Below are positions 45,749-62,990 of a stretch of DNA of 64,000 nt, in pieces; position 1 is the stretch's first letter, and every line of letters starts with the position of its first letter. This DNA comes from Nematostella vectensis. Lineage: Eukaryota. Under the pieces are notes generated by a model. The model ran no database searches and was not told where the DNA came from. It saw only the letters and a list, made by a program, of their open reading frames with translations. Both the position numbers and the translations under genes were made by a program. The stretch covers positions 6,257,459 to 6,321,458 of the forward strand of contig NC_064039.1 in NCBI RefSeq assembly GCF_932526225.1, given 5' to 3'.

Positions 45749-46300
45749 AGTAGTAGGGTTTTGGCGCAGCTGGCGCAACTTTTTGATCTCCCCAAATTTC
45801 ATTCCAAAAGTGGCGCAAAAGTCTCCGCACACCTCCGCCAAGCCTCGCGACCTGCGCATGCGCGAGTTTGCCAGAGATCTCTCGCACGACCAAGCCCACC
45901 TGTCAATCACTTTGTCACGTGACGGCCACGCCCACCTGTCAATCACTTTGTCACGTGACGGCCACGCCCACCTGTCAATCACTTTGTCACGTGATAGCCA
46001 CGCCCACCTGTCAATCATTTTGTAAAAAACCTGTCAATCACTTTGTCACGTGATGACCACGCCCACCTGTCAATCATTTTGTCAAAAACCTGTCAATCAC
46101 TTTGTCAAAAACCTGTCAATCACTTTGTCAAGAACCTGTCAATCACTTTGTCAAAAACCTGTCAATCACTTTGTCAAGAGCCTGTCAATCATTTTGTCAC
46201 GTGATAGCCAAGCCCACCTGTCAATCACTTTGTCACGTGCTGCACCTAGGGGGAGCCTGGGGGCTATTCTGGTCTAAAGACGTATGAGACCCTAGATAAA

Positions 46301-46561
46301 ATGACATTAAAGACGGAGGTGAAGATTAAAAACGGTGCGGCTACCGCCGGCGGTTGTTCGGTGCCGGAGGTGAACGTGAGTAACACTGCGGATGCGGGGC
46401 CTGAACACTGCTGTTGTAACGCTGATTACTATGAAGACTCAGAATACGGAAGCTTCGACCCCGTTGGGTTTGTGGCCGGAGCGGCGACAATTGTCCTTGG
46501 TGTTCTAGCAATGTTAGTCTCCATGCCACGGTATGGCGAAAAAAGATGGGTGAGATACTAG
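46301..46561 (+). CDS. small hypothetical membrane protein (86 aa, one TM) encoded inside the left-TIR-specific insertion
   Basis: ORF with upstream TCTAAAGACG promoter-like motif; TM FVAGAATIVLGVLAMLVSM. Confidence 0.3.
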   Translation: MTLKTEVKIKNGAATAGGCSVPEVNVSNTADAGPEHCCCNADYYEDSEYGSFDPVGFVAGAATIVLGVLAMLVSMPRYGEKRWVRY

Positions 46562-46703
46562 TCCACGGATGTGGTGCGGAGGCTTTAGACCGCACCGCCC
46601 CCACGCGGACCCCTTCGGAAGTCTTAGCAACCACACACATCACACCCAGAGGGAGCTCGAGGGGCTAGCCTCTCAGCTTCACATCTAAAAAAGCTTTTGA
46701 AAA

Positions 46704-46716
46704 GTGGTTTAAAGAC
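46704..46716 (+). promoter_or_regulatory. conserved promoter motif GTGGTTTAAAGAC 18 nt upstream of the TFIIB-like gene ATG
   Basis: identical motif and spacing at 47752-47764 (ankyrin), 48651-48663 (Cys-rich) and reverse-complement 61839-61852 (pPolB). Confidence 0.6.
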
Positions 46717-46733
46717 ATGAACAGTTTAATAAA

Positions 46734-47660
46734 ATGGAGGAACGAACAGTTGAACGTACGGCTGAAGATCGGTCACCACCACCATATAATATCCTCGGCG
46801 GACCGGTGCCTGAGATTAACGCCCCCACCCTCATGCCGGAATTTGCACTGTTTGACCGAGCCCTCACCGAATACGAGACTAGTAGAGCCTCCTTGGGAGA
46901 CGAGGATAGTAGTAACACCCTTTGCAATCATGGCGACCTAGTCACAGAGGACGGGGTCACTAGTTGCTTAGAGTGCGGGGAACAGATGCAGCGCGTGATC
47001 GCGCACGAAAGGGAATGGGGTTTTTACGGACATTCCGACGGCGAACGGTCTTCGGATCCAAGTCGGGTCCAGGTACGTAGGTCTGAGGATAGAAATATTG
47101 ACAAGGATGTGGAGAACATGGGTTTTAGCGGGGTAATTGTATCCAAAGCTAACGAGATATACACTCAGGTGACGAAAGGCCAGATTTTTCGCGGCGACCC
47201 ACGGAAGGCGGTCGTCTTTGCGTGTATCTACTACGCCTACAAGATGTCCGGTAAGTGTCAGACACCGAAAACCTTGATGGAAACTTTTGGATTGAGCAGG
47301 AAGAGTTGCCTTAAGGGTCTAAAAATCTTTAGTATTAACGTGCCTAAAGATTACTTACTACACGGAACGTCTCCCACCGTCGTGGACCACATTCACGATG
47401 TGATGGATAGATTCTCGGCGTCCCCCGCACAGAAGGGAGAGGTGGTCCAGCTCTACTACAGATCTAAGAACCGCTCGTCTGAGTTGAATCGCGCTCGCCC
47501 ACAATCCTTTGCGGTCGCTTTAACCTATTACTGGGTACGGCTAAAGGGGGTCGATATTACACTTAAAAAATTCTCCGAAAGAACGGGCGTCTCCGAGTTA
47601 ACCATCAGTAGGAAAGCGAGAGAAGTGGCCACAGTCCTGGGTACGCCTGGTGTGGTATGA
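46734..47660 (+). CDS. TFIIB-like transcription initiation factor (N-terminal Zn ribbon C-x-H-x15-C-x2-C, B-reader/linker, two cyclin-like repeats, C-terminal HTH)
   Basis: LCNHGDLVTEDGVTSCLECGEQ…EREWGFY parallels TFIIB [24 protein letters not shown]…GSEWRTF; core ANEIYTQV…AVVFACIYYAYKMSG…TLMETFGLSRKSCLKGLKIF parallels TFIIB cyclin repeat 1. Confidence 0.8.
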   Translation: MEERTVERTAEDRSPPPYNILGGPVPEINAPTLMPEFALFDRALTEYETSRASLGDEDSSNTLCNHGDLVTEDGVTSCLECGEQMQRVIAHEREWGFYGHSDGERSSDPSRVQVRRSEDRNIDKDVENMGFSGVIVSKANEIYTQVTKGQIFRGDPRKAVVFACIYYAYKMSGKCQTPKTLMETFGLSRKSCLKGLKIFSINVPKDYLLHGTSPTVVDHIHDVMDRFSASPAQKGEVVQLYYRSKNRSSELNRARPQSFAVALTYYWVRLKGVDITLKKFSERTGVSELTISRKAREVATVLGTPGVV

Positions 47661-47664
47661 TGTT

Positions 47665-47688
47665 TCCTGATTTCCAGAGAAATCAGGA
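47665..47688 (+). terminator. perfect 10-bp stem/4-nt loop hairpin 5 nt after the TFIIB-like stop codon (TCCTGATTTC-caga-GAAATCAGGA)
   Basis: seen in sequence; a similar hairpin follows the Cys-rich gene. Confidence 0.35.
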
Positions 47689-47751
47689 TTTCCAGAAAAC
47701 TGTCAGTTCGGAGTAGATGTGAATTAACACGTCTAAAGAAATTCGAAAAAA

Positions 47752-47764
47752 GTGGTTTAAAGAC
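47752..47764 (+). promoter_or_regulatory. promoter motif GTGGTTTAAAGAC 18 nt upstream of ankyrin gene ATG
   Basis: see 46704. Confidence 0.6.
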
Positions 47765-47781
47765 GTGGATGTAATAACAAA

Positions 47782-48606
47782 ATGGATATGCAAAGTGCTG
47801 GAAGTCTTACAAATCTCACCGTGGAGGATCAAGCCGCCACCTTAGCGAGGTGGGGAGCCGCAGACTTTGACGCCGTTATGGAGCGCGCGGCGTGGGAGGG
47901 GTGCGTCGAGACCGTGAGGTTGTGTAAGAGTTGGGGTGCGACGGATTTCGAAAAGCCGATGGTCAGGGCCGCAATGAACGGCCACACCGAGATCGTTAAG
48001 ATGTGTTGTGAGTCGGGCGCCTGTGACTTCGTGTATCCAGCGTCCATGGCCGCGAAAGGCGGGCACGTAGAGGTTTTGAAGGTGATGGGCGAGTATTGTG
48101 CCGACGGAGGAGAGGCCATGACCGAGGCCATGGGTGCTGCGGCGGCGGAAGGTCAGGTGGGGGTTGTTGAGTTGTTGATAGATCTAGGTGTCGATGTCGA
48201 TGTCGGTTGGGCCACCGCTGAGGCGGCGTACAATGGGCACGTTGAGGTTCTGAAGCTGCTGAGAGAAAACTTCTGGGAGTTTGACCCGGACTATGCTATA
48301 ACACCAGCCATCGAATCTCGCAACCTCGAGATTGTGAGGTTGTGCTTGGAGTGGGGCGCGACCGATCTCATTGTACATATGAACTACGCACGGTTTTGGC
48401 ATCTGCATAAGATTTTCGCGGTGCTACGTGCGGCGTGGGGGTGGAGTCTTGTGCATGAGGAGCTCCCGGAGAAGCTACACAAGGTGAGATTCCGTAGAAA
48501 GCTGGAGGACGAACTAATGCCAGTAGCTTGGCATCCGGACAGGTTTTGGGATTGGTGCATGGATGAGCAAGAGAAGGAAATGTTGGGAGAATGCTTCGCC
48601 AGGTAG
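47782..48606 (+). CDS. ankyrin-repeat protein (at least 5 ANK repeats: …AAMNGHTEIVKMCCESGA…, AAKGGHVEVLKVM, AAAEGQVGVVELLIDLGVDV, AAYNGHVEVLKLL, …NLEIVRLCLEWGA)
   Basis: repeated ~33-aa ANK consensus (A.-G----V--LL--GA). Confidence 0.8.
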   Translation: MDMQSAGSLTNLTVEDQAATLARWGAADFDAVMERAAWEGCVETVRLCKSWGATDFEKPMVRAAMNGHTEIVKMCCESGACDFVYPASMAAKGGHVEVLKVMGEYCADGGEAMTEAMGAAAAEGQVGVVELLIDLGVDVDVGWATAEAAYNGHVEVLKLLRENFWEFDPDYAITPAIESRNLEIVRLCLEWGATDLIVHMNYARFWHLHKIFAVLRAAWGWSLVHEELPEKLHKVRFRRKLEDELMPVAWHPDRFWDWCMDEQEKEMLGECFAR

Positions 48607-48650
48607 ACGCCGACCGGCTAGAAGGCGGGTATCGCGTGTTGGATTGAAAA

Positions 48651-48663
48651 GTGATTTAAGGAC
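48651..48663 (+). promoter_or_regulatory. promoter motif GTGATTTAAGGAC abutting the first ATG of the Cys-rich gene. The 60 bp around it duplicates the pPolB promoter/5' end.
   Basis: AAAGTGATTTAAGGACATGACCGGTTTGATAGAAATGGAGAAC versus AAAGTGGTTTAAAGACATGACTGGTTTGATAGAAATGGAGAAC (pPolB). Confidence 0.6.
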
Positions 48664-49011
48664 ATGACCGGTTTGATAGAAATGGAGAACCAAACGGTGA
48701 AAGACTCGAAAGTATCCCCCGTAAAGCGAACAACGGATTATAAGTGTCTTCATGGCAGAGTGAAATATTATTGCAAAGATTGTCACGGATCGCAAATCTG
48801 CCCTCACAACCGGAGAAAAACGCGGTGCAGAGAATGTAACGGCGGTAGCATTTGTGAGCACAGACGAGCAAGATATGTCTGTAAAGACTGCAAGGGGAAA
48901 GGGATGTGTGAACACAGCAAACAGAGACCCTTTTGTAAGTTATGCGGAGGGTCTCAAATATGCGAACACGATAGACAAAAGCACCATTGCAGAACGTGTA
49001 ACGGAAATTAA
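48664..49011 (+). CDS. basic Cys-rich protein with four tandem zinc-knuckle-like modules C-x2-C-x5/6-C-x-H-x6-C. Putative nucleic-acid-binding/core protein. N-terminal MTGLIEMEN shared with pPolB.
   Basis: CKDCHGSQICPHNRRKTRC / CRECNGGSICEHRRARYVC / CKDCKGKGMCEHSKQRPFC / CKLCGGSQICEHDRQKHHC; K/R/H-rich. Confidence 0.65.
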   Translation: MTGLIEMENQTVKDSKVSPVKRTTDYKCLHGRVKYYCKDCHGSQICPHNRRKTRCRECNGGSICEHRRARYVCKDCKGKGMCEHSKQRPFCKLCGGSQICEHDRQKHHCRTCNGN

Positions 49012-49026
49012 CATTGACCCACTCAG

Positions 49027-49053
49027 TTTTGTAACGCGTCTCACGTTACAAAA
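49027..49053 (+). terminator. 10-bp stem hairpin (TTTTGTAACG-cgtctca-CGTTACAAAA) 16 nt after the Cys-rich gene stop
   Basis: seen in sequence. Confidence 0.35.
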
Positions 49054-49208
49054 CACATACATTCCTAATCACCCTAACAACTAGCGATTCTGAAAATAGG
49101 TTTTGTATTTACATTGAGAGTTCGCGGTCGCCAGGGTGGTCTGGTATGCACGTGAACAGGTATTGTCTTCTTGCGGTACGTCACATCCGTCCACATGCAC
49201 CCCGCATG

Positions 49209-50735
49209 TTACCGGAATAGATACCAAGCTAAACCAGCCGTAAAGGCTGTGATCGTGACAAGGTTATTTTCGTGCTGCGTGTTCGTGGGTTTAATCACGT
49301 CCGGCTTTGGGTTAGTTTTCGCCTCCGGTTCCGGTTTGTGAGCCGTGACTGACTCGGTATGAGGTAACACAATCTTTGAATGACCCATATTATGTTTAGG
49401 GATCGTTTTTATCTCGTTATTTATCGGATTCAGCCCCAGTTTCATATCAGTGGTGGCTTTTTGTAACTTGTTATTATAGCCAGCGATCGAAGTGTTGTTA
49501 TTTATCACAAGATACGATGGACTTAACCAACAGCCGAGGGCGAAAGCTAGGTCTAGTTTTTGTCTCGCCTGTTGTAAAGCAAACTGATACCGTTGTATAC
49601 TTTTCGATATACTGTTTTCCACCACCGCGCTTTCGAAGAGTTTCGTGAAGACCTGTTTCGTTTCCTGAGCTGAACCGCTATCGCCGACGATTGACGACCG
49701 GGTCTGAACTTGCGCGCCTAGAATACAGTAGACAAAGGCTTCGATGCTCTGGTTTATCCTAGACAACCCAGCTTTGGTTAACCCCATTGATTTTTCCGGA
49801 AAGAACCACTCATACTGAAACCCAGTTCTAAGGTCTTTCAGGTACTCGATCTCAAAGTGATTCATGTGTTCGTGGTCGCTTTTGGCAGCGTCCCATTCGT
49901 CGTGTAATTGATCAATGGTGCCATAAGGCTTATACTTGTCGTTAGAAGATGACAAGCCGTGATAATCATAATTATAAACGTTCCCTAACCCGTGATTTAT
50001 CGGTCTGAGGAACCGGAAATCGTCACCAGTTCGGAATTCTGTTCTTAGTTTTTGGTAAGCCGCTTCGCTGTAAAAGTTTTTATTCCAACTAAAGAGCCTA
50101 TCTTTTGGAAGAGGGCATTGTAGCTCGTTTAATATTCGTCTGATAGTGAAAATGATGTGAAATCTGTAGAATGACCCCACTTGAGAGTCGTCAATCATGT
50201 CACGCGTCACACCACATCCAGCAGTCGCGCAAAACATAGCAAAATTTAAGGCTTGACTCCAATAACTGAGGTTTGGGGCGTCGAGCCACCTACTAGCCTC
50301 CTTTGCTGTTCTGAATACTAGCAAGCTGTCGGTGAATATGTCCCTAAAAACAAAGTGTGTCTTCACCTTTGGTGTTATAAAAACATTAAAAGAGACGTAA
50401 TTATTTCTCGTAGGGTTTTCGTCCCACGGCAATATCTTGTACTCTGCACGCGCGTCTAGTCTGTATTGTTTTGGGAACCCAAACAGTTGCTGGATCGTTT
50501 CCTTGTATGCTTGTGTGTCGTCGGCGACTAGAAAATCCTGGATATTCTCGGGTTTCCAGCTATTACCAGGGAAGTGATATAACGTTTTGACTAGATTCCC
50601 ATTCTTGTCGAATGGATCGTATTCGTCCCCATTGAAAACGAATTGCACATTGCCGTGCCCGTCGGCAGAGAACCTGAAGCGTGAGTAGTAGGGGTACCTT
50701 TTCACAAATTCTGTAAACTTCATCTTATATGACAT
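49209..50735 (-). CDS. hypothetical 508-aa protein with C-terminal transmembrane anchor (LVTITAFTAGLAWYLFR); no recognisable family
   Basis: long intact ORF with GATTTAAAAACATC promoter-like motif upstream; second in-frame ATG (M5) has the canonical spacing. Confidence 0.6.
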   Translation of the reverse strand: MSYKMKFTEFVKRYPYYSRFRFSADGHGNVQFVFNGDEYDPFDKNGNLVKTLYHFPGNSWKPENIQDFLVADDTQAYKETIQQLFGFPKQYRLDARAEYKILPWDENPTRNNYVSFNVFITPKVKTHFVFRDIFTDSLLVFRTAKEASRWLDAPNLSYWSQALNFAMFCATAGCGVTRDMIDDSQVGSFYRFHIIFTIRRILNELQCPLPKDRLFSWNKNFYSEAAYQKLRTEFRTGDDFRFLRPINHGLGNVYNYDYHGLSSSNDKYKPYGTIDQLHDEWDAAKSDHEHMNHFEIEYLKDLRTGFQYEWFFPEKSMGLTKAGLSRINQSIEAFVYCILGAQVQTRSSIVGDSGSAQETKQVFTKLFESAVVENSISKSIQRYQFALQQARQKLDLAFALGCWLSPSYLVINNNTSIAGYNNKLQKATTDMKLGLNPINNEIKTIPKHNMGHSKIVLPHTESVTAHKPEPEAKTNPKPDVIKPTNTQHENNLVTITAFTAGLAWYLFR

Positions 50736-50813
50736 ATAAGATGTTTTTAAATCAGTCCTTTACGCATCTCAATTCATAGATCCATCCGACGGGAGTTCTC
50801 TCGTACAGAAATT

Positions 50814-51419
50814 TCACCGAGCGGGTCGACTCGCCAGGTCTTTCAAAATCTCTTCTCTTACTGTTTCCCTCAGCTTGGTAATGTTTACGTTTTTTTCGTC
50901 CTCTCTTACCGACTTTTGACGGATCTGGAGCTTTAGAGCCTCAAACTTGTCCACCTCGTTCAAGATTAAAGAGAACTCTTCGTCTGATATTTTGTTGTCT
51001 TTTAAAGCTTTAGAGACCAGGTCGCGTATGCTATTTACTTTTGCCTTTGCCATCGCCGCTGTTTGGTCGTGCTTGGAGACTTTTTGCGACAGCCGTTTAG
51101 AAACCGCCGCACAGCCTACAGACGTAAGACCGAAAACACCGGCCAAAGCACCCAACGGAACTCCGACGACGATACCAAAACCTGACAGAGAAGTCCCCAA
51201 ACCACTAGACCCAAGAATGACGGATAAGAGTCCTAAGACCACACTTAACTTTGAAAACACGCTCTGCCCTCGTTTATACTTTTTCCTCACGTTCTCGTAA
51301 TGTTTAACTTCTTGCTCCAAACTTCCCAAAACATCGTGGGTCTTTTGGAGTCTGAAGTTATCACCCGAGGGGCTGACCCCTCGGGGTACGTTCGGGTAGA
51401 TTGAGTTGTACTCTTCCAT
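50814..51419 (-). CDS. hypothetical membrane protein (201 aa, two glycine-zipper TM helices, C-terminal coiled coil)
   Basis: ORF plus upstream CACTTAAAGAAT motif. Confidence 0.55.
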   Translation of the reverse strand: MEEYNSIYPNVPRGVSPSGDNFRLQKTHDVLGSLEQEVKHYENVRKKYKRGQSVFSKLSVVLGLLSVILGSSGLGTSLSGFGIVVGVPLGALAGVFGLTSVGCAAVSKRLSQKVSKHDQTAAMAKAKVNSIRDLVSKALKDNKISDEEFSLILNEVDKFEALKLQIRQKSVREDEKNVNITKLRETVREEILKDLASRPAR

Positions 51420-51446
51420 AGCTTTATTATGGGGAGAATTTATTCT

Positions 51447-52070
51447 TTAAGTGATTTCTAAAATTAGACGTATCGGGTAGAGACCGCGCTCTATTGTGTT
51501 TCCGTCACCACCCTTTATACTAAGACGGAGACTACTCACGTAACCGACTGATGTGGTGCTAACCCGTACCGGATCGCTTGGATTGAGGTATATCTTTCCT
51601 TCATCAAGCTCTACACTTGCTAGGATTTGTGAGGGCGCCCCTTGTTGGAGGGAGTCAGACGCGTTCACAAGATCGCAGTGGATAAAAATAGCCTCGTGAC
51701 CTATCATCTTTATCTCGTGGCGAGTGTTTGCTTCCAGCTCCCTGGTCTTGAGTCCTAACAGGCAGGCGAGCGGCTCATTCAACGCGACGTTCCGGTGAAC
51801 TTCGAGTGACGAGTCTCTAATAGAGACTGACTTTTCACCAAGACGCATACCCCCATCTATTTGACGTTTTAGCGTCTCGATCGTATACTGCCCCGCGGGG
51901 ATCCTAAGGATAATGTTCTCACCGTCGGAGACCGTTCCCTCGCTTGAGAGACTGTTACAACGATTATGAAACGCACATCCTCGCAGCGCGATAAACCGCG
52001 GCTTTTCAATAGGTTGTTCTAAATAGACAGTAAAGTCACCAACGTTTCCTTCAATGTAGAGTAATACCAT
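51447..52070 (-). CDS. hypothetical beta-rich 207-aa protein; candidate single-jelly-roll minor capsid (penton) protein
   Basis: size, position in the virion-gene block and alternating hydrophobic pattern; upstream GATTTAAAAGGAGAC motif. No motif-level recognition. Confidence 0.45.
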   Translation of the reverse strand: MVLLYIEGNVGDFTVYLEQPIEKPRFIALRGCAFHNRCNSLSSEGTVSDGENIILRIPAGQYTIETLKRQIDGGMRLGEKSVSIRDSSLEVHRNVALNEPLACLLGLKTRELEANTRHEIKMIGHEAIFIHCDLVNASDSLQQGAPSQILASVELDEGKIYLNPSDPVRVSTTSVGYVSSLRLSIKGGDGNTIERGLYPIRLILEIT

Positions 52071-52073
52071 TTG

Positions 52074-53096
52074 TTATGATTTCCGTCTCCTTTTAAATCG
52101 TTCTACGGAATACAGGACGACAGCGACGATGAGAAGCCATGCGTTTTTAGCTAAAAAGCCAACAACTTCACCTGCCGTTCTAAATATGAAACTAGCTATA
52201 GCACCAACCATTCCTGGGAGTATTTCTCCTAATTTTTTGCCTATTGTTTTCAGACCATTTCCAACACCTTTTGCAACACTAGTCAGCCCAGCTTTCAGAT
52301 TAGAGACAATAACACCGATAACAACGCCCACAGCGGTAACGACAGCAGCGACTGTAAATCCGTATTTCTTAAAAATCGCTTTGACACGATCTTTCAACGA
52401 CATTCTCTCTTCAAGATTTTCTCTCTCCAATTGATTCTCTTCCAAAGTCTCATCTATGACAGAATTTCTTTCGCTGAGCTCTTCATTTTTACGATCTATA
52501 GCTCTTAGTCTTTCTTGGTTAGTTGTTTCACTTCGTTCCTCATTATTTTTTCTCATTTGCTCGGTGTTTCTCTCTTCTTCTTCTCTGAGTGTATTACCTG
52601 TAGCGTCTAGTTCATCGAGTTGAATCTGAATTTGCTTGTACTTTCCGGATCTGATTTTGTCGTCAACACTCTTCCGCACCGTTCTATCCTCATTATACAA
52701 CCTTTCTGGTCTAGTCCAACCACCTTTTCTCGCAGAATAGAAGGAAATGAATTGTTTTCCTCTCTCATCCGTTGAAATCTGAACTAGATTTTCATCAAGA
52801 TCTGGATATTTCGATAACAAAAGGTCTACCCTAAGTGTGTCCGTTGAAGGAGAACCTCCCATATTCTGTAACTCCATGTACTCGGGGACAGCCCTCCCGG
52901 GGTTTCGTGTTTTCCATAAGTCAGTCAACCTCCTACTCACATAGCTTGCACCTCTACCAAATCTGTTTGAAATCCTTTCATTCCATGATTCTCTTCCCTC
53001 ACCATCGTTTGGAATAAGAGAGTCATAATCTTCGTCTACAGTAGTATTCAAATCTTCTCTACCTTCTTCTGTTGTGGGATCAAAATCTATATCCAT
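52074..53096 (-). CDS. hypothetical 340-aa protein: acidic N-terminus, E/R-rich coiled coil, C-terminal multi-TM region
   Basis: ORF plus upstream GACTTAAAGATTT motif. Confidence 0.55.
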   Translation of the reverse strand: MDIDFDPTTEEGREDLNTTVDEDYDSLIPNDGEGRESWNERISNRFGRGASYVSRRLTDLWKTRNPGRAVPEYMELQNMGGSPSTDTLRVDLLLSKYPDLDENLVQISTDERGKQFISFYSARKGGWTRPERLYNEDRTVRKSVDDKIRSGKYKQIQIQLDELDATGNTLREEEERNTEQMRKNNEERSETTNQERLRAIDRKNEELSERNSVIDETLEENQLERENLEERMSLKDRVKAIFKKYGFTVAAVVTAVGVVIGVIVSNLKAGLTSVAKGVGNGLKTIGKKLGEILPGMVGAIASFIFRTAGEVVGFLAKNAWLLIVAVVLYSVERFKRRRKS

Positions 53097-53140
53097 TTCT
53101 TATTTTGTTTGAAAATAAGAAATCTTTAAGTCGTGCCAGC

Positions 53141-53557
53141 TCATATCCACCTACTCGCTACATAGCCAAGGGCTAACATTCCACCTCCAACGTACGCCAT
53201 CTCTCCCATCTTTTGGTTGCTACTTGGTCTGTAGTAATCTGAGAGCTCAGGCTCTTTCAAATCAAAATCTGGATGTGTTTGAGCGTATAGTTTGAAAGCC
53301 TCATCCGTCTCTTTATCGTTCTCATCCGCACGAACTTTATCGTTGTATTGTTCAGTCAACCAATCCTGGTATTCCTGTCTTTTTTTCTGCCAATCACCCA
53401 TTGCTTGTTGATACTTTTCAAGCGCTTTATCGTGTCTTATTTTTTCTTTATCAACATGAGTAGCGTCAGAAGACAAGTATCTCGCTAGGTAACTCCCTCC
53501 GACAAACGCCGTCGCATTAATAAAAGCCCCACCAATCATAAATGCTATACTCGCCAT
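53141..53557 (-). CDS. hypothetical membrane protein (138 aa; N- and C-terminal TM segments)
   Basis: ORF plus upstream CGACTTAAAGATC motif 19 nt from ATG. Confidence 0.5.
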   Translation of the reverse strand: MASIAFMIGGAFINATAFVGGSYLARYLSSDATHVDKEKIRHDKALEKYQQAMGDWQKKRQEYQDWLTEQYNDKVRADENDKETDEAFKLYAQTHPDFDLKEPELSDYYRPSSNQKMGEMAYVGGGMLALGYVASRWI

Positions 53558-53589
53558 TTATTAATCAATCTATAAGATCTTTAAGTCGC

Positions 53590-53814
53590 CTACAGCGGTT
53601 TTGGCAAAATCTTTTGTGTTTCCAGATAATCTTTCAGATACATACTACCGGACAGGACAGCAACCCATTTAGCGTAGTTTGTAACACTTGACGAAGGGTC
53701 GCTGATGAATGACTCTTTCATAGCCTTTTTAGCAACATAACCCACGCCGGCGGCTAATCCGATGATGACTGCTGAGTCGGTGATCGTTTTCACAAGTTTG
53801 TTTTCAGTTGACAT
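53590..53814 (-). CDS. hypothetical small membrane protein (74 aa)
   Basis: ORF plus upstream GATTTAAAGATTATC motif, preceded by the 30-bp palindromic element. Confidence 0.45.
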   Translation of the reverse strand: MSTENKLVKTITDSAVIIGLAAGVGYVAKKAMKESFISDPSSSVTNYAKWVAVLSGSMYLKDYLETQKILPKPL

Positions 53815-53849
53815 GATTTTATTTATTACAGATTCAGATAATCTTTAAA

Positions 53850-54311
53850 TCACAACATTCCTATTTTTGGCGTCGCGTTCGGGAGGCTAGCCCCTCGAGC
53901 TCCCCCTAGGTGGGAGGTGGGTCTCCCAAGAGTTTCGGCCTCGTTGACGTTAATCTTAGACGGCTCGCCCTCTTTCTTTTTGTAAAAACGCATATACATA
54001 TCCAATGCGGTGAGCCCTATTCCAACTAGAGCCAGTACAGTTGTAAACGATAGCTCTGGAATCCAAGCGTCCGAGAGGCTATCCCCTCGAGCTCCCTCTT
54101 GGTGGGGTGTCTCTGCTCGTGCAGCGTCTTCTGAACTCGCCTCCGCCTCGCGTTTCATCTCCCTAGCAAGTGCTTCTCTACACCTCCTATTATATTCGGC
54201 AACTCTCTTACCAGAAGCGACTTTTATAGGATCTTTCTCCTTAGCGGCACTCTTCTTCCTGGGGGGAGGGTCCTTTGTGATTTGCTCAACCTCTTGATTT
54301 TCGTCAGACAT
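53850..54311 (-). CDS. hypothetical 153-aa protein, basic N-terminus plus one TM
   Basis: ORF plus upstream GATTTAAAGATTC motif. Confidence 0.5.
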   Translation of the reverse strand: MSDENQEVEQITKDPPPRKKSAAKEKDPIKVASGKRVAEYNRRCREALAREMKREAEASSEDAARAETPHQEGARGDSLSDAWIPELSFTTVLALVGIGLTALDMYMRFYKKKEGEPSKINVNEAETLGRPTSHLGGARGASLPNATPKIGML

Positions 54312-54453
54312 GATTCTTTACTCACTGAATAAAGAATCTTTAAATCACATCATGCTCAAGAGCTTGCTCAGTTGTGCTCAAGAGCTTGCTCAGGTGTGCT
54401 CAAGAGCTTGCTTAGGTGTGCTCAGGTGTGCTCAAGAGTTTGCTTAGGTGTGC

Positions 54454-54981
54454 TCAGGTGTGCTCAAGAGTTTGCTCAGTTGTGCTTGAAACTTCTTGAA
54501 GTTTGTTGGAAGTCTCCTGTGAAGGTGTTAGTTTAACATGCTTAGCGACCCGAAAGATGGCACTAGCAAGTGCTACCATCCTTCCTCCCTTCAATACCAA
54601 GAGACCTGCAAAGTTTGACAATTCGCGTTTAACCAACTCGTCGTTCTGTAAGTCTTTGCTAAGCGCTTCGGTGTCATCTACAGGAACCACGTAGGAAATG
54701 ACTTGAGACACCACTTGAAGTGCTGATTCTACTAATCCATCAGTAACTTGTTTGCCTAAGACAGTCTGGTAGCGAACAAAGTACTTTTCGACGTCTTTCG
54801 CCGGGAGCTTCTTGATGTCCCCTAAACTCATGTCCACACCAAGAAATTCCTTCGTAGTCCCAAGAGATGCGAGAATAGCCAGCGATTCTCGTTTGACTTC
54901 AACATCGTCTTCGAGAGGCTCACCCTTCGAGCTCCCCTTAGACTTAGGCTCCTCTTCCATATAATCCTCAATGCTTGCCAT
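54454..54981 (-). CDS. hypothetical 175-aa acidic protein (likely start MASIEDYMEEE…; the six-frame ORF extends to 55047)
   Basis: AAGTGGTTTAAAAACATC motif lies 25 nt upstream of the internal ATG at 54981, and the 30-bp palindrome abuts it. Confidence 0.5.
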   Translation of the reverse strand: MASIEDYMEEEPKSKGSSKGEPLEDDVEVKRESLAILASLGTTKEFLGVDMSLGDIKKLPAKDVEKYFVRYQTVLGKQVTDGLVESALQVVSQVISYVVPVDDTEALSKDLQNDELVKRELSNFAGLLVLKGGRMVALASAIFRVAKHVKLTPSQETSNKLQEVSSTTEQTLEHT

Positions 54982-55043
54982 CTTATTTTGTAAGTAGACC
55001 AAGATGTTTTTAAACCACTTCGAGGGGTCAGCCCCTCGAGCTC

Positions 55044-55670
55044 TCACCGCGTGGCAGGAATCTCCAAATAACGTTGGAATGGATGTCGTAGGCAGAAACA
55101 GAGTCTGGAATACTTTTCAGTTTTCAGCAGTTCTACAAACTTTTTACGAGTCTCAACGTCTAAGTCACCCCCATAATCTTCAAACAGTGTTTTGGTACCG
55201 ATTTGAGATGGATTATGGAATGTAACCACACAGGCGACGTTATCACGGAAGGGCTTTGCTATGGATGTTAATTGTTGCGTCAATACCCACACTGATAATC
55301 CTTCGTGTCTCCCTGAGAACGCTAAATTGATAAACTTGTTCGAGCGTTGCTTTAGATCTTTCGATACAGCACAGTCATCCAAAACGAGTAACGTATTTGT
55401 ACCAGAAAATAGCACCGCACAATCTGTTAGTAACTCGTTAATCTCATCGGTGTTACTAGCATCCGGCGATAATACCAAGAAACGTTTATCTCCGTGAGCA
55501 AATCTACGATAGGACTTGTTTTTCGCATAAGTCGGACAAATCAACACAATGTATTCAAACACATGCCGGAACGGCCCTCGGAGCTGTTCCGTGAGGTACT
55601 TTGTCTTCCCACAATTAGTAGGTCCTGTGATAATACAATGAAAAGGAACTTTTTCCCGTAATTCTTCCAT
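55044..55670 (-). CDS. FtsK/HerA-superfamily (A32-like) genome-packaging ATPase; Walker A GPTNCGKT, Walker B LLVLDD. Likely start MEELREK (the ORF call 55044..55691 starts on a non-ATG codon).
   Basis: P-loop and hhhhDD motifs, ~210 aa, location next to capsid gene as in Polintons/virophages. Confidence 0.85.
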   Translation of the reverse strand: MEELREKVPFHCIITGPTNCGKTKYLTEQLRGPFRHVFEYIVLICPTYAKNKSYRRFAHGDKRFLVLSPDASNTDEINELLTDCAVLFSGTNTLLVLDDCAVSKDLKQRSNKFINLAFSGRHEGLSVWVLTQQLTSIAKPFRDNVACVVTFHNPSQIGTKTLFEDYGGDLDVETRKKFVELLKTEKYSRLCFCLRHPFQRYLEIPATR

Positions 55671-55698
55671 TCTTTTTGTATTATCACACAAGTCCTTT

Positions 55699-56937
55699 TT
55701 AATACATGATTGCTCTCAAATTCGAGTTCATAACCTCCATCAACGCGTCGGCTACTACAAACATGTAGCAGGTGATGTTTCCCGTTCCTCCAACTTTTCG
55801 TTTCATCTCGAGTTTTACTCCGTCTCGCGTGTTGTTCAAGACCAGACCTCCTCCGTGAATGCTGTTATCTGGGTGTGCCCTCAAGTCGACCCACAGAGCA
55901 AACTTGTTATTAGCGTAAAAATCCTTTTGCTTGACACCCTCTCTACCGAAACGTTTCTTTACCGACTCCCAGAGGTCCGGCGGTGTCATCCCCTTGGAGT
56001 AGAGACGGTTTGGCATGCCATCCACATTAATGTTGATCGATGTGATGCTTGGATTGACAAACTTTTCGGAATCCCTTGCTCCTCCGGTGTAGCTCTCTGT
56101 GAACAGGCACAATATCCCTGTCATTGACCTCCTCGGCAGATTAATGTGCTCGTTTATGACACCATCATTAGGTTTGGAGATGGTGAACGTTTTGTGGAGA
56201 ATGACGTTCTCGTAAAAGAATCCTCTACCAACCTGATAAGCCGACAACGCCTCACGAGCTAAGTATTCACTTGAGATGCAAGCATATTCCAACTCGAGGT
56301 TTGTGATTGTGTACGTTGGAGTCTTGACCGTGTCAGCATAAACAACGACGTCGGAAACTGGGGCTAGAGTAATTTCAAAGATTAGCGGATGAGGTAACGC
56401 CTTTGGATAAAAGACCCCATGCTCGCCGAGAATAGGATGGTCGAGTGGAATGCAGTACTTGGTGTTGTGAACTGCTGCAAGAGCTACTTCCTTAGCATCT
56501 GATGTCGCTTTGTCACCTGCATTTGTCCTGAGCTTCCTCATGTTCTCAGAGGAGATACCTTGTTTTATTCTATCCTCACGATCTTCAGCTTGTAAGTATA
56601 AGTCGTGATAGGTTTGGAAGAGATCGTATCTTTGAGTATCCTGTAGTGTTTCTCCACCGAAAAGAATCTTGAGCCTTGACACTAGGTTCCGGCCAACGTT
56701 GTTGACGAGAGTATTATTCGCGTGTCCTGTGACGTTTAAGTCAAATAGTAAGGATACACTACCTGGAACAATCACTACATTTTCAGCAAGTTTTGGAATA
56801 TTTATATAGAGGGTTTCTCCAGGACTTGCCGATGAGGGATTGAATGTAATCCGATTCAGCGACGATTCCGCTTTCAGGCCGAAGGGTTCCCGTGGGATCC
56901 TGTTTGGGTTAATTTTTTCTGATATCGCTTGTGCCAT
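55699..56937 (-). CDS. putative double-jelly-roll major capsid protein (412 aa)
   Basis: beta-rich 45-kDa protein immediately upstream of the packaging ATPase, the conserved MCP position in Polintons; no direct motif proof. Confidence 0.55.
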   Translation of the reverse strand: MAQAISEKINPNRIPREPFGLKAESSLNRITFNPSSASPGETLYINIPKLAENVVIVPGSVSLLFDLNVTGHANNTLVNNVGRNLVSRLKILFGGETLQDTQRYDLFQTYHDLYLQAEDREDRIKQGISSENMRKLRTNAGDKATSDAKEVALAAVHNTKYCIPLDHPILGEHGVFYPKALPHPLIFEITLAPVSDVVVYADTVKTPTYTITNLELEYACISSEYLAREALSAYQVGRGFFYENVILHKTFTISKPNDGVINEHINLPRRSMTGILCLFTESYTGGARDSEKFVNPSITSININVDGMPNRLYSKGMTPPDLWESVKKRFGREGVKQKDFYANNKFALWVDLRAHPDNSIHGGGLVLNNTRDGVKLEMKRKVGGTGNITCYMFVVADALMEVMNSNLRAIMY

Positions 56938-56970
56938 CTTTTATTTTAAGAAAAGAGAGATAATCTTTAA
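56938..56970. promoter_or_regulatory. 33-bp bidirectional promoter between MCP (-) and integrase (+): TTTTAAGAAAAGAGAGATAATCTTTAAA carries the TTTAAAGA-type motif in both orientations
   Basis: palindromic arrangement TTTAAGA…TCTTTAAA. Confidence 0.5.
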
Positions 56971-57963
56971 ATGAGTAACGAAAGCAGGTTATCAAAAATA
57001 TACTATTCCACCGATGGATACTGGAAAGGGTATTCAGCTATTTATAAGTTAGCTAGTGTCGCTAAAGTCAGTGAAGCCGAGGCTAAGAGGTGGCTTGAAA
57101 AACAGGCGTTGTGGCAGATCTATCTCCCAGCTCCAAAGTATGTCCCCAGACCGCATTGGACTGTGAATAAACCTAATCAGATTCACCAAGCCGATCTGTT
57201 GTTTATGCCCCACGATAACGTAGGCAGAAAAACCTACCGTTACGCGTTGGTCGTGATTGATATTGCCTCGAGATATAAAGATGCAGAAGCACTGACTACC
57301 AAGGATTCGAGTGGAATTGCTAAAGGGTTTGAAAAGATATACTCCAGAAAACTTAAATGGCCTCATACGGTGATTGTCGATCCGGGGACAGAATTTAGGG
57401 GAGAGGTAACGAAGATTATGAAAAAGAAGGGGGTTACCATCCAGCGAAGCGAAGCTGGGAACCATCGCGCACAGGCTTTTGTCGAACGCGCCAATAGAAC
57501 ACTGGCGGAGAGGTTGTTTTCTTATCAGTATGCTCAAGAAATGATTAGCGATGATCGGTCCAGAGTTTGGGTGAAACGATTGCCAGATGTTTTGAAGACT
57601 CTGAATAGTCAACCCATAAGAATTACTGGCAAAGAGCCTGTAAAATCTATTGGTTTGAAAGAGGTTGATATTGACCCTCCAACGTATAAGCGGCCTGTTG
57701 GACTTGACGAAGTTAGACTACCACCAGGGGTTAGAGTTAGATATCTATTAGCTCCTGGAGAAGAGGAAGGAGGTGAACGCAGACGAGCCACAGACCCCAT
57801 TTGGAGTTTGAAAGTGTTTGATCTATCACGCAGTGTTGTTTCGGTTGGGCAGCCTGTGTTGTACTACCTCTCCGAAGGCGCTCCAAGGAGGTCGTTCGTT
57901 AGGGAAGAACTTCAAGTCGTCCCTGAAGATACTGAGCCACCACCTAATAGCGTTCTGAAATGA
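56971..57963 (+). CDS. retroviral-type (rve) DDE integrase with C-terminal extension
   Basis: catalytic triad context HQADLLF (D) … VIVDPGTEF (D) … NHRAQAFVERANRTL (E); ~35-aa D-E spacing. Confidence 0.9.
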   Translation: MSNESRLSKIYYSTDGYWKGYSAIYKLASVAKVSEAEAKRWLEKQALWQIYLPAPKYVPRPHWTVNKPNQIHQADLLFMPHDNVGRKTYRYALVVIDIASRYKDAEALTTKDSSGIAKGFEKIYSRKLKWPHTVIVDPGTEFRGEVTKIMKKKGVTIQRSEAGNHRAQAFVERANRTLAERLFSYQYAQEMISDDRSRVWVKRLPDVLKTLNSQPIRITGKEPVKSIGLKEVDIDPPTYKRPVGLDEVRLPPGVRVRYLLAPGEEEGGERRRATDPIWSLKVFDLSRSVVSVGQPVLYYLSEGAPRRSFVREELQVVPEDTEPPPNSVLK

Positions 57964-60900
57964 CCGTGAGCGAAGGTGTGAATACCATCATCACAGATGA
58001 CCCGTTTATCATCCTCATGAGATAGAGCGACCTTGTTCACCGTTTCAGTGTAAACATCATGCTTATGACTTCTGATGACATTCATAAGTCTCATCTGAGG
58101 TTTCTTACCAAATAAGCAATCCTTGTAGTCATCGAAACCGATGCTCTTCTTGACGACTGCTCTCTTGACGCCCTTGCATTTCTTTTCTTCTTTACCTTCA
58201 TCCATCTTGTACGAGTAAAGTTTGGCCCTCAGTCCTACAAATTCTGTGATTTGCTGGCCCCCAGCCTCATCTTTAAACATTCCGATGACTTTCTTGTTCA
58301 CACCCACCTCAATACCAGATGGGTGACCCTTCGGAAAGTTGCTGGTGTCGAACATGGACCTCACATCCCCGCTGATGTCCTCGTAAAAGTCTTTCGTCTC
58401 GATCTCATACATCAGGCTGTCAGTATCAGTGAATAAGAGCTTTGCATCCTCACCGTACTTAGGCTTGACGAAGTTGTAGTGGAAATCGTACATGAGCGTC
58501 TTACTCAGGTCCAGAATGGACATACCCAAGTAGACAGGCTTGTTGAAGATCAGCTTTGTCTTCTTCATGTGGATGGCGGCTAGATTCTCGCAAAAGATGG
58601 TGCGATGTTGATAGTTCGGCTTTGATATGAGCTTCTTGGCCTGCTTCTCGTCCGTCACCAACCGAATGTCCACCCTGTTCCTAATGTTCTCCATAGTCTT
58701 ACCAAAGACGGAGTTGTTCATTAACTTGAAAAAATCTTTCTCAAAATCGTTTGTCGCCTTGGCTCTCAGATCGGTGTTCAAGTCAATGTAGGGCTCCAGC
58801 CAAGCAGACTCCTCAAAAGTGACACCCCTGTGAATCTTGGTGACTTTTAGCCCAAAACTCACATAAAGTCTCAGAGTCTCATGGTGGATAACGTACTTTG
58901 TCTTGTCGTTAAGGTTGGGGACCAACTTGTCCACATTGCCTAGCCCGATAGATTCCGGGGCTAGTGGGTAATCGTTGTGTAAGTCATGTAGGTGGTGAGG
59001 GTACTCCAAGTCAACCTCCAGAATGCATGGGCGGTCTCTCCAACCTGACAGCTCTTGGTCACCCATCCACCTGAAACCGTGAGTCGGTAAAGGGTTGCTC
59101 ATCGCCCAGCCATACAAATTGTTAGCATCAAGGTAGGTGATATATTTTGTGGGTAGGTCAGGGTCATACTCCTTCATGTAAGGGTTATTTGCCTCCCCAT
59201 GTCTGTTGCTTATCATGGAGACACCCCCACGGATGCCCTTCTCAATCATGAGCAACATGTCATAGTCCGTTAGAAGCTCTAGCCTCACCTTGGTGGTCTT
59301 CAACGCTGCATCCCAAGCCAACCCTGGCGCTGTGTAGTACCAAGCGGGGTCCAGACCGTAATTCTTGAGACAAACGTCCCTAAAGTTCTCGAAAACGTCA
59401 GCTAAAAGCAACACATCCGACTCTAGGTACAGATTGTGGTAATCCCTCATGGTCCCCATCCCAAAGGCCTCCCACACTCTCCGCGCGTGCAGGTGATCCT
59501 CCTCCGATATGTCGGTGTCGTTGAGTTTGGAGTGGAACGCCTCTCTCTGTGGGAGCTGTGTTGCGTCGAGCTTGCTAAAGCCGTCGAACCAGTCGTAAGG
59601 GAAAACACCCTTCCTCAACAACAGCTGAAGCTCCTCCCCCTCATAGTACTCCGCCAGGTTTTTGAAGCACTCCCTTGACATATTACCCACTAGACTGTCG
59701 AGACTGGCCGACATAAACCTGAAACTGTCGATAAATCTGATATCACGTTTAACATCAATCTTGTTGCCCTCCTTGTTCGTGAAACTGTCGACTACAATCT
59801 GTTTTGTGAAAGAAATATACTTTTCCTCGTTATTAGGTATACAGTTTATTTTACCTTCCGATGTACCAAGGTTCTTGATAAATAGATGGCTGTCGTACCC
59901 AGACAGATTGTGAAAGATAACAGGAAAGAACTTTGGAATTTTGTGATCTAAGTTGCATGCGTTGTGAGCAGCACCTCTGTACTTCCCTGTAAGGTGGCAA
60001 TGGTCCAAAACCTTGTCTTCCCCTAATTCACCCTCACAGATGTGGCAGTGAGTGGCGTCGTTATAGGCGATTTTGTCCTTCGGAGTCATTTTCACCTTCT
60101 TAGGGAACCTGAACTTATCATAAATTTTCTTAATGTCTGACTCCAAAGACTCTACGAAAAGCTGTGGGATATCTTCGTCTGGAGATTCAGCTGTGTATCG
60201 TACAAGCTCGGATGGGGATATATCTCCGTCGAAACACTTGATGAGATAGCAGAAACCAGACGGTTTGTGTTTCTGGTATTGCTTAGTGAAGCTTTTACTC
60301 TCATCTGGGGAGCATGTGTCTATATTCTCTGTGAAGCTCTCAAAGTCGGCGTAGACAACAAAGGGGACACGCATTTTTCTGTTGTAGTTTTTGAATTTAA
60401 TGTGGGGTAGATTTCCATCCTTATCTATCTTAGGCATCTCTATTCCAACCGCTTCATGATTGCCGCAGCATTCAGAATGTTTTTCTAATGATTGTTTGCA
60501 CCGAAACGAGTTCAGACATCTACAGCATAAAAAACGAGTATGATGAAACTCATCAATTTGAGTAGATACTAATCTCATCATATTCTTTATCCAGCAGTAA
60601 TGATTCGTCTCATCATCCGAGATGAGAAGTAAGTTGATTGCATTATCTGGATCCTTCTCACTGATTCTCAATGGATATATTTTGGTTTCGTATCCAAACA
60701 CATTAACCGTATACTGGTTCTGTTTCTCGAACTTGTCAATCTGTTTTAGTGAGACGGGGAACTCTATCCCTGACCAGTCGAATTTCTCAGAGCTCTCTAT
60801 CATTTGTTTACTGAACCTTTGAGGATCTTTCTCCCTAGGATACACAGCAGAGGTTACTGCCCACTTGAAACATTCGTGATCATTCTCGTTCTTAACATTG

Positions 60901-61838: not shown

Positions 61839-62383
61839 GTCTTTAAACCACTTTTCAAAAGCTTTTTTAGATGTGAAGCTTAGAGGCTAGCCTCCCGAGC
61901 TCCCCCTAGGTGCGACACGTGACAAAGTGATTGACAGGTGGGCTTGACTATCACGTGACAAAGTGATTGACAGGTTCTTGACAAAATGATTGACAGGTTC
62001 TTGACAAAATGATTGACAGGTTTTTTACAAAGTGATTGACAGGTGGGCGTGGCTATCACATGACAAAGTGATTGACAGGTTTTTGACAAAGTGATTGACA
62101 GGTGGGCTTGGCCGTCACGTGACAAAGTGATTGACAGGTTTTTTACAAAGTGATTGACAGGTGGGCTTGGCTATCACGTGACAAAGTGATTGACAGGTGG
62201 GCTTGGCTATCACGTGACAAAATGATTGACAGGTGGGCTTGGTCGTGCGAGAGATCTCTGGCAAACTCGCGCATGCGCAGGTCGCGAGGCTTGGCGGAGG
62301 TGTGCGGAGACTTTTGCGCCACTTTTGGAATGAAATTTGGGGAGATCAAAAAGTTGCGCCAGCTGCGCCAAAACCCTACTACT
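61839..62383. repeat. right TIR (545 bp) with ~12 TGATTGACAG-containing subrepeats and 4-5 CACGTG boxes
   Basis: reverse complement of left TIR. Confidence 0.9.
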
Positions 62384-62479: not shown

Positions 62480-62990
62480 TGGAATTTTATTAATAAATCC
62501 ATTAACATTTCCACTTTGCAAATATAAATAGAATAAAGTAGAGGAAAGAATGCGGACCTATTTATGGTAAGTAGTAGACACCGGATATCATTAATATACT
62601 CCGCATTCCTGAGTACCGAAGTGTAGTACTGTAGTACTGTACCCTGAGCACCAGAACCTCCATTAACATTTCCACTTTGCAAATATATATAGAATAGAGT
62701 AGAGGAAAGAATGCGGACCTATTTATGGTAAGTAGTAGACACCGGATATCATTAATATACTCCGCATTCCTGAGTACCGAAGTGTAGTACTGTAGTACTG
62801 TACCCTGGGCACCAGAACCTCCATTAACATTTCCACTTTGCAAATATATAGAATAGAGTAGAGGAAAGAATGCGGACCTATTAATGGTAAGTAGTAGACA
62901 CCGGATATCATTAATATACTCCGCTTTCCTGAGTACCGAAGGGTAATACTGTTCCCCTGGTACCAGACCCTCCACACTTCTCTCGTCCAG
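62480..62990. repeat. ~180-bp satellite x ~2.8, each unit containing an internal 8-10-bp inverted repeat (GAATGCGGA…TCCGCATTC); a diverged partial unit lies at 63150-63230
   Basis: direct tandem repetition. Confidence 0.8.

Follow-up and report, generated by a model that had tools for sequence, protein, structure and literature searches.

Polinton-3_NV of Nematostella vectensis carries an overlooked penton gene within a conserved, membrane-protein-rich module that may belong to an internal-membrane virion

What is the role of eight consecutive genes that lie beside the capsid genes of a virus integrated in an animal genome? This question is raised by a 64,000-nucleotide stretch of Nematostella vectensis DNA (contig NC_064039.1, positions 6,257,459 to 6,321,458; hereafter the window, in whose numbering all positions are given), which contains a complete integrated element of the Polinton-3_NV type. 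Polinton-3_NV is an integrated virus that joins the PolB and rve integrase of Polintons to a small double-jelly-roll major capsid protein (MCP) of the kind found in Polinton-like viruses (PLVs). Eight successive minus-strand open reading frames (ORFs) of 508, 201, 207, 340, 138, 74, 153 and 175 aa occupy positions 49209-55047 of the window, between accessory genes (TFIIB-like, ankyrin, Cys-rich) on one side and the A32 ATPase and MCP genes on the other, a layout that had been predicted from the letters alone and was confirmed by examination of ORFs and Pfam domains. We propose that this block is very probably a core virion and assembly module, consisting of the penton p207, the soluble p175, five integral membrane proteins (p153, p74, p138, p340 and p201) and the tail-anchored p508.

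The eight ORFs are listed below with their predicted domains in residue numbers; transmembrane (TM) calls throughout were made with a Kyte-Doolittle hydropathy scan.

49209..50735, minus strand: p508, alpha/beta globular domain (1-440), P/K-rich disordered linker (443-486) and C-terminal hydrophobic tail anchor (487-507)
50814..51419, minus strand: p201, two glycine-rich TM helices (~55-105; Kyte-Doolittle, conserved alignment), with an N-terminal helix before and a C-terminal helical region after them
51447..52070, minus strand: p207, penton with a single jelly roll, of the Polinton PX family of minor capsid proteins
52074..53096, minus strand: p340, variable acidic/coiled-coil N-terminal part and conserved ~110-aa C-terminal membrane domain
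53141..53557, minus strand: p138, charged helical middle between N- and C-terminal glycine-rich hydrophobic helices
53590..53814, minus strand: p74, small membrane protein, the most conserved gene of the block, hydrophobic segment 10-28
53850..54311, minus strand: p153, conserved basic N-terminal domain, one TM helix (~87-107), variable C-terminus
54454..54981, minus strand: p175, acidic and helical, no true TM segment, always directly downstream of the ATPase

The start of p175 was placed at the ATG at 54981, as in its homologues; the mechanical ORF begins at a GTG and is 197 aa long.

The original prediction held that none of these ORFs matches a known Polinton protein and that the block stands in place of the usual minor-capsid region. 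Both statements are contradicted by p207. Its sequence pattern agrees with that of the Polinton PX proteins in the 2014 supplement (PMC4028283), and it aligns over its full length with the PX protein of Polinton-N1B_NV (BLASTP E 1e-26, 29% identity). A profile of the p207 family matched a profile of 11 canonical PX/penton proteins, including the Tetrahymena Tlr penton, with an hhalign probability of 99.1% (E 5.9e-19). The AlphaFold model, built with nine close sequences, is poor overall (predicted local distance difference test score, 53.6), and its beta core has a single jelly-roll fold like that of solved pentons. Compared with 48,164 chains, this core found pentons as its four best matches; the scores of pentons were as follows:

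PBCV-1 P1, 10.1
PBCV-1 P1v1, 9.7
mavirus penton, 9.0
EhV-201 penton, 8.3
Sputnik and fowl adenovirus pentons, 6.9

By sequence comparison and modelling, p207 is thus identified as the overlooked penton, or PX minor capsid protein, of Polinton-3_NV and as an ordinary soluble jelly roll; the minor capsid gene is therefore present rather than replaced. Table S1 of PMC4028283 scored Polinton-3_NV as positive for MCP and ATPase and negative for protease and penton, whereas in the window copy the penton is the 207-aa ORF, which removes an apparent anomaly of this element. Homologues of p207 were found in L003, L004, L005, L009, L033, L046, L047, L053-L055, L062 and other related loci, always within the module and at shifting positions. 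Assignment of the ORFs to soluble virion proteins by structure searches had been named in advance as an outcome that would undo the membrane-module proposal, and it applies to p207 only.

The block is conserved together with the capsid genes. We compared the contigs encoding p508 homologues and 80 of the 312 metagenome contigs encoding MCP relatives, with ORFs searched by hidden Markov models (HMMs) and phmmer. MCP and ATPase are accompanied by all eight families, in one of two fixed gene orders, both in 7 independent elements from eukaryote assemblies and in sufficiently long metagenome contigs. In the order of the window element, the genes run PolB, INT(-), MCP, ATPase, p175, p153, p74, p138, p340, (penton), p201, p508, and in the other order p201(-), penton(-), p508, p340(-), MCP, ATPase, p175, p153, p74, p138, INT, PolB(-), where INT is the integrase. 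The expected neighbours are present in every contig long enough, while the accessory genes (TFIIB-like, ankyrin, Cys-rich) differ from one element to the next. The most compact illustration is L009, an intact metagenomic genome of 13,934 bp (GC 33%) with exact 117-nt terminal inverted repeats (TIRs) at both ends, which encodes PolB, integrase, MCP, ATPase, seven block families recognised by HMM, a p74-like 76-aa ORF in the position of p74 and about three other ORFs. Sibling contigs of L009, 13.97-14.2 kb in length, occur in other samples. Since the block families always accompany MCP, penton and packaging ATPase, we regard them as a core virion module.

Substitution patterns point in the same direction. 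Against the closest relative of the window element (L002), the ratio of nonsynonymous to synonymous substitution rates (dN/dS) is 0.03 for p74, 0.075 for MCP, 0.10 for the integrase, 0.11 for the ATPase, 0.17 for p153 (range of its estimates, 0.15-0.17), 0.21 for p340 and 0.29 for p175. For p138, p201 and p508, synonymous sites are saturated, yet the proportion of nonsynonymous differences is far below that of synonymous ones. In p340, p201 and p138, conservation is highest in the hydrophobic segments, which persist in L009 at 30-40% identity; p138 retains 51-66% identity in five related loci (L001-L005), and p74 is 96% identical in L002. On these sequence data the eight families are under purifying selection and are not decaying. 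Lack of conservation had likewise been named as grounds for abandoning the proposal; instead, the block is syntenic in every related element, with dN/dS, where measurable, between 0.03 and 0.29. This decay test was run on related elements rather than on N. vectensis sister copies: the window contains one copy only of the element, and exact-sequence look-ups gave no record for the window p508 or two NCBI paralogues.

Divergence from L002 is mosaic along 49209-57963, with a synonymous difference of 0.41-0.53 from the integrase through p74 and of 0.72-0.93 from p138 through p508. Because of this change across the module, the alignment implies a putative recombination breakpoint between p74 and p138.

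Six of the eight proteins had been predicted to carry TM segments. Five have strong, conserved segments: two in p201, two strong and one weaker in the C-terminal part of p340, one N-terminal and one C-terminal in p138, one or perhaps two in p74, and one in p153. The sixth, the tail of p508, falls below the usual hydropathy threshold but is a predicted helix, and a hydrophobic C-terminal tail of the ...AGLAWYLFR type is kept in 94 of 110 full-length homologues. The expectation that p207 and p175 have no TM segment was borne out, p207 having no hydrophobic segment and p175 only an amphipathic stretch broken by charges. Glycine-zipper-like motifs, foreseen in all six proteins, were found within the hydrophobic segments of four, namely p201, p340, p138 and p74. 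The structural module therefore includes small integral membrane proteins of five families, together with one tail-anchored protein, as judged by hydropathy only.

p508 belongs to a large family (more than 316 proteins, and at least 2,918 cluster representatives), in which its closest homologue is a Nematostella vectensis protein with 95% identity. AlphaFold predicts residues 487-507 to be helical, following the disordered P/K-rich linker. The composition of this linker changes fully between homologues while the tail is kept, being P/K-rich in the window and made of HNST repeats in L009. No N-terminal signal peptide or other N-terminal hydrophobic signal was found in p508, and its model matched no solved or predicted viral fold, fusogen folds included. 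A globular domain, a variable low-complexity linker and a C-terminal anchor without a signal peptide are the architecture of a tail-anchored protein, and p508 is accordingly predicted, from sequence and model, to have its bulk on the cytosolic side of the membrane. A role for p508 as a substitute cysteine protease, considered because of the conserved residues Q161, C169/C174 and H193, was rejected, as these residues lie in helices of a non-papain fold and no protease was matched. One related element carries two tandem p508 genes (L001, 7875-10483).

p508 and the six small proteins other than the penton have no significant Pfam match, and the six small ones gave only chance-level hits, whether single sequences or all family members were used. 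p340 has 1,401 homologues in a 90%-identity collection, and in 118 of 120 homologues the spacing between the C-terminus and the two strong hydrophobic segments is fixed. Among homologues, the acidic, coiled-coil region that forms the N-terminal part of p340 ranges from 0 to ~300 residues, a variation that argues against a tape-measure (length-determining) role. p340 has no N-terminal signal peptide, and its profile gave only chance-level PDB matches. p175 has no PDB or Pfam match, and its homologues are syntenic immediately after the ATPase. An ORF of L005 in which ATPase and p175 are fused (14308-15186) was set aside as evidence of functional coupling, since its ATPase part is truncated and a deletion is more likely. 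Paralogy among the membrane families of the block was rejected by hhalign comparison. The possibility that p201 is a SLATT two-TM pore domain found no support, SLATT being absent from the Pfam hits of 8 members even at E values up to 10.

The promoters of the block resemble that of the MCP gene. Each ORF had been predicted to possess its own promoter of the TTTAAAGA type, which holds for the degenerate box YTTAAARR, present 16-35 nt upstream of the ATG of all eight ORFs, and does not hold for exact TTTAAAGA, which among the eight precedes p74 and p153 only and whose 10 matches in the whole window show no enrichment over the 6.2 expected. Of the 16 YTTAAARR boxes in the element, 12 precede a gene ATG by 9-35 nt on the coding strand, those of the eight ORFs and MCP included, where the background rate predicts ~0.3 such start-proximal boxes. 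Related elements have T(T/C)TAAAGA at the same distance from the start, and a more distant lineage has another motif. The boxes are placed as follows.

53842..53849, minus strand: one such TATA-like promoter box, TTTAAAGA, 35 nt upstream of the p74 ATG
50744-50751, 51444-51451, 52090-52097, 53123-53130, 53578-53585, 54337-54344, 55007-55014 and 56964-56971: equivalent promoter boxes

A virion role is supported by these promoters, because the block genes use the MCP-type box, and by the fact that they fill about half of the minimal genome.

Among well-studied viruses, PRD1 (15-kb genome) forms a membrane-containing capsid from MCP, penton, ATPase and many small membrane proteins, and a protein-loaded membrane is the platform on which PRD1, PM2 and chloroviruses assemble these same three core proteins. 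The window element has the double-jelly-roll MCP, jelly-roll penton and FtsK/A32 ATPase that are expected of this class of internal-membrane viruses, and it resembles them in a late module rich in small integral membrane proteins and in a genome size like that of PRD1. We therefore tentatively read the block, with somewhat less than even confidence, as the late module of Polinton-3_NV, which would build a particle with an internal lipid layer; its location in the virion and the presence of lipid are inferred from knowledge of PRD1, PM2 and chloroviruses. Of the membrane-containing virion originally proposed, the dense block of membrane proteins has thus held up, and is conserved with the capsid genes, while an envelope or fusogen variant and the replacement of the minor capsid protein have not.

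In the proposed mechanism, a separate TATA-like box ~30 nt before each ATG would drive transcription of the corresponding block gene, and the membrane proteins would insert into a host membrane, probably of the endoplasmic reticulum type. MCP and penton would assemble an icosahedral shell on this membrane, so that lipid would form an inner layer of the particle, as it does in PRD1, PM2 and chloroviruses. p508 would be held in the membrane by its C-terminal anchor while its flexible linker reaches the shell or vertex, the basic domain of p153 would face the DNA, and the A32 ATPase, together with p175, would package the genome. The absence of a protease, which had been predicted, was upheld: no ORF of the element gave a Peptidase_C5-like match indicative of an adenain-type protease, in agreement with Table S1 of PMC4028283, and none is needed in PLV-type modules (PMC4642659). 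In its widest form, the proposal is of an animal-resident (cnidarian) Polinton lineage that builds PRD1- or chlorovirus-like internal-membrane particles with a fixed and hitherto undescribed set of five small membrane proteins and with p508, a tail-anchored protein of new fold, linking the membrane to the shell or vertex, a possibility that we hold a shade more loosely.

Several observations weigh against an internal membrane. Polinton virions have never been observed (10.64898/2026.06.19.733378). The TM calls come from a hydropathy scan and no dedicated predictor. The seven non-penton families show no detectable sequence similarity to membrane or minor capsid proteins of PRD1, PM2 or the chlorovirus PBCV-1 or to other solved structures: profile searches with all seven against PDB sequences returned nothing below E 0.03. 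No relatives were detected in IMG/VR (p508 profile, MCP sequence and MCP profile) or in a phage collection (tblastn), and the lineage has so far been seen only in host genomes or host-associated metagenomes. One metagenome contig, L062, ends at TIRs yet has fragmented genes, which weakens TIR-ended contigs as proof of free linear genomes; such contigs can derive from integrated multi-copy elements. Finally, the closest relatives on the Polinton side for which structures have been solved, virophages and adenoviruses, lack a membrane.

The membrane-free capsids of virophages and adenoviruses also speak for the strongest alternative, in which the hydrophobic proteins are packaged in a lipid-free particle as membrane-active core or entry proteins and released in the endosome to breach the host membrane, like polyomavirus VP2 or adenovirus protein VI/X; this is the 'Macc' class put forward for adintoviruses and further midsize viruses with linear DNA. 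Related viruses are known to have small late ORFs of hydrophobic, holin-like character, which form a polyphyletic class (PMC11071296, PMC8502044), and conservation of the block with the capsid genes fits any structural role. However, known membrane-free capsids contain one or two amphipathic lytic peptides, as opposed to five or six proteins with full-length glycine-rich TM helices or hairpins; keeping true TM hairpins and a tail anchor in solution inside a lipid-free capsid would be difficult, and there is no maturation protease to free lytic peptides. We consider this alternative unlikely, although it retains appreciable weight.

Somewhat less likely again is a non-structural role, whereby the proteins would remodel host membranes for assembly or replication sites, act as viroporins, or serve egress or cell-to-cell spread, and would not be part of the particle. 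The same conservation data apply to this explanation, and an N-terminal part of p340 that varies from absent to ~300 aa would be more easily tolerated outside a fixed-size shell. Yet the genes are interleaved with the penton gene, adjoin those for MCP and ATPase and share the MCP-type promoter box, and roughly half of the genes of a 13.9-kb minimal genome are devoted to the block families, whereas genes for host interaction (ankyrin, Cys-rich, TFIIB-like) lie in a separate, variable region.

An external envelope with an entry or fusion apparatus is improbable. In this scenario p508 or p340 would be a fusogen, comparable to the captured glycoprotein of nematode Mavericks, which are reported to carry a fusogen (10.1101/2022.07.12.499685). 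p508 does combine a membrane anchor, a flexible stalk and a large domain, and p340 couples a coiled coil to membrane segments, but both lack the N-terminal signal peptide of a fusion glycoprotein with a luminal ectodomain, and the bulk of a tail-anchored protein is cytosolic rather than luminal or exterior. Moreover, p508 has only two conserved cysteines, and its model, the only one of the two whose fold was compared, resembles no fusogen. That the ORFs are chance or decaying frames in a dead transposon copy has a negligible probability, since, although fragmentation is common among the related copies of other genomes (L007, L029, L062), the eight ORFs here are intact, have homologues by the hundreds or thousands in conserved order, and show dN/dS well below 1.

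The element resembles the PLVs of protists (PgVV/Gezel-14T and the TVS1 group) in its small PgVV-like MCP and in a morphogenetic set of MCP, penton and A32 ATPase that lacks a maturation protease (PMC4642659); the MCP of Polinton-3_NV is closest to that of the PLV PgVV (PMC4028283), and some cnidarian A32 ATPases are reported to group with the PLV-type 'Aquintoviruses' (10.64898/2026.06.19.733378). In contrast to PLVs, the element encodes an rve integrase and a protein-primed PolB, resides within the genome of an animal and has no relatives found in IMG/VR; no lipase or Tlr6F was recognised in the element, and its membrane-protein set has not been reported for PLVs. Adintoviruses and 'meldviruses' similarly have unannotated hydrophobic or helical ORFs amid their late genes, termed Macc and Cah (PMC8502044, PMC11071296). 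However, Macc and Cah are loosely defined by predicted fold and are usually accompanied by an adenain protease, absent here, and by pX/pVI-like domains, whereas the window element has five or six distinct families with true TM hairpins, conserved as a fixed set. In the literature searched, we found no description of the element's penton, of a fixed set of five membrane proteins with p508 and p175, or of the universal co-occurrence of this set with this capsid lineage.

These results matter because the architecture of Polintons/Mavericks, whose particles have never been seen, has been inferred only from their MCP, penton, ATPase and protease genes. A protease-less lineage with six membrane-anchored proteins and a soluble partner of the ATPase offers a testable parts list for a possibly membrane-containing particle, and the large unnamed families of p508 and p340 can serve to mark this virus group in coral metagenomes and in the genomes of cnidarians. 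Its PLV-type capsid is relevant to the relation between small membrane-free and large membrane-containing double-jelly-roll viruses. If an internal membrane is indeed present, the lineage would be the first in animals to bring membrane-containing particles into the Polinton/PLV assemblage, and in structure it would stand between small PLVs and membrane-containing giant viruses.

The element itself and the remaining features near the block are as follows.

45749-62383, 16,635 bp: complete integrated element of the Polinton-3_NV type, recognised by its TIR arms, termini and MCP identity
55044..55691, minus strand: A32-type genome-packaging ATPase (Pfam Pox_A32, E 3.7e-11)
55699..56937, minus strand: MCP (double jelly roll, PLV/PgVV-like), identical to the published Polinton-3_NV MCP, with a weak Pfam Capsid_N match
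54353..54486, no strand assigned: 22-nt tandem repeat TGCTCAAGAGCTTGCTCAGGTG, ~6 copies, which overlaps the p175 3' end and lies immediately upstream of the promoter of p153

The 412-aa MCP adjoining the block is letter-identical to that given for Polinton-3_NV in supplement 5 of PMC4028283, and ATPase, PolB and integrase are present as in that element, whose consensus is 16,575 bp long against 16,635 bp here. The host element is thus identified by sequence as an intact copy of Repbase Polinton-3_NV in Nematostella vectensis DNA. Its TIR arms (45749-46261 and 61894-62383) are ~510 nt long with 92-97% identity, its termini are AGTAGTAGGG, and the direct repeat CCCTC on both flanks represents a target-site duplication of 5 bp, compared with the usual 6 bp of Polintons/Mavericks. 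The integrase (Pfam rve, E 9.9e-8) also agrees with this group. On the plus strand lie accessory genes for TFIIB-like (Pfam TFIIB, E 1.5e-8), ankyrin and Cys-rich proteins. The probable start of the ATPase is the ATG at 55670, as homologues align from M8. A Pfam scan of the 1308-aa ORF at 57912-61838 found no polymerase domain. This ORF aligns with an ORF of L005 that carries Pfam DNA_pol_B_2 (24.8% identity over 597 aa, E 1e-27), and because of this counterpart and the identity of the element as a named Repbase Polinton we take it to be the protein-primed PolB. It also contains an N-terminal SAP/Rho_N-like DNA-binding motif (E 4.6e-5) and, at residues 587-630, a segment that resembles Endonuclease VII (E 7.8e-6).

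A second promoter flavour, AAAAGTGGTTTAAAGAC (46640-46754, 47720-47781, 48640-48712 and 61790-61915), precedes the TFIIB-like, ankyrin, Cys-rich and PolB genes and often runs directly into the ATG, whereas the MCP and block genes instead have (T/C)TTAAAGATT ~30 nt upstream. The two flavours suggest early and late gene classes, going by their distribution. An inverted 69-nt segment, 87% identical, is common to the gene for the 115-aa Cys-rich protein (48644-48712) and PolB (61790-61858); it spans the promoter and first codons, and both proteins begin MTGLIEMEN, so that a 5' end appears to have been duplicated between the two genes. An 86-aa ORF with a predicted TM segment had been placed inside the left TIR and in fact lies between that TIR (45749-46261) and the copy of the PolB promoter segment (46640-46754). 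It spans 46301-46561, is preceded at 27 nt by a TCTAAAGA box and encodes a single strong hydrophobic segment; it counts as an uncertain gene, since no homologue was found in the 90 fetched loci.

The TIRs are composed of 23-, 36- and 59-nt sub-repeats with ACCTGTCAATCACTTTGTCACGTG, including a CACGTG palindrome (45886-46199 and 61956-62242), and these sub-repeats may be candidate binding sites for the integrase or a terminal protein. Outside the element, the host DNA contains tandem arrays at 36531-37484 (40 nt x 24), 39458-40896 (32 nt x 45) and 62498-62952 (161 nt x 2.8), the first of which coincides with a strong GC-skew excursion.

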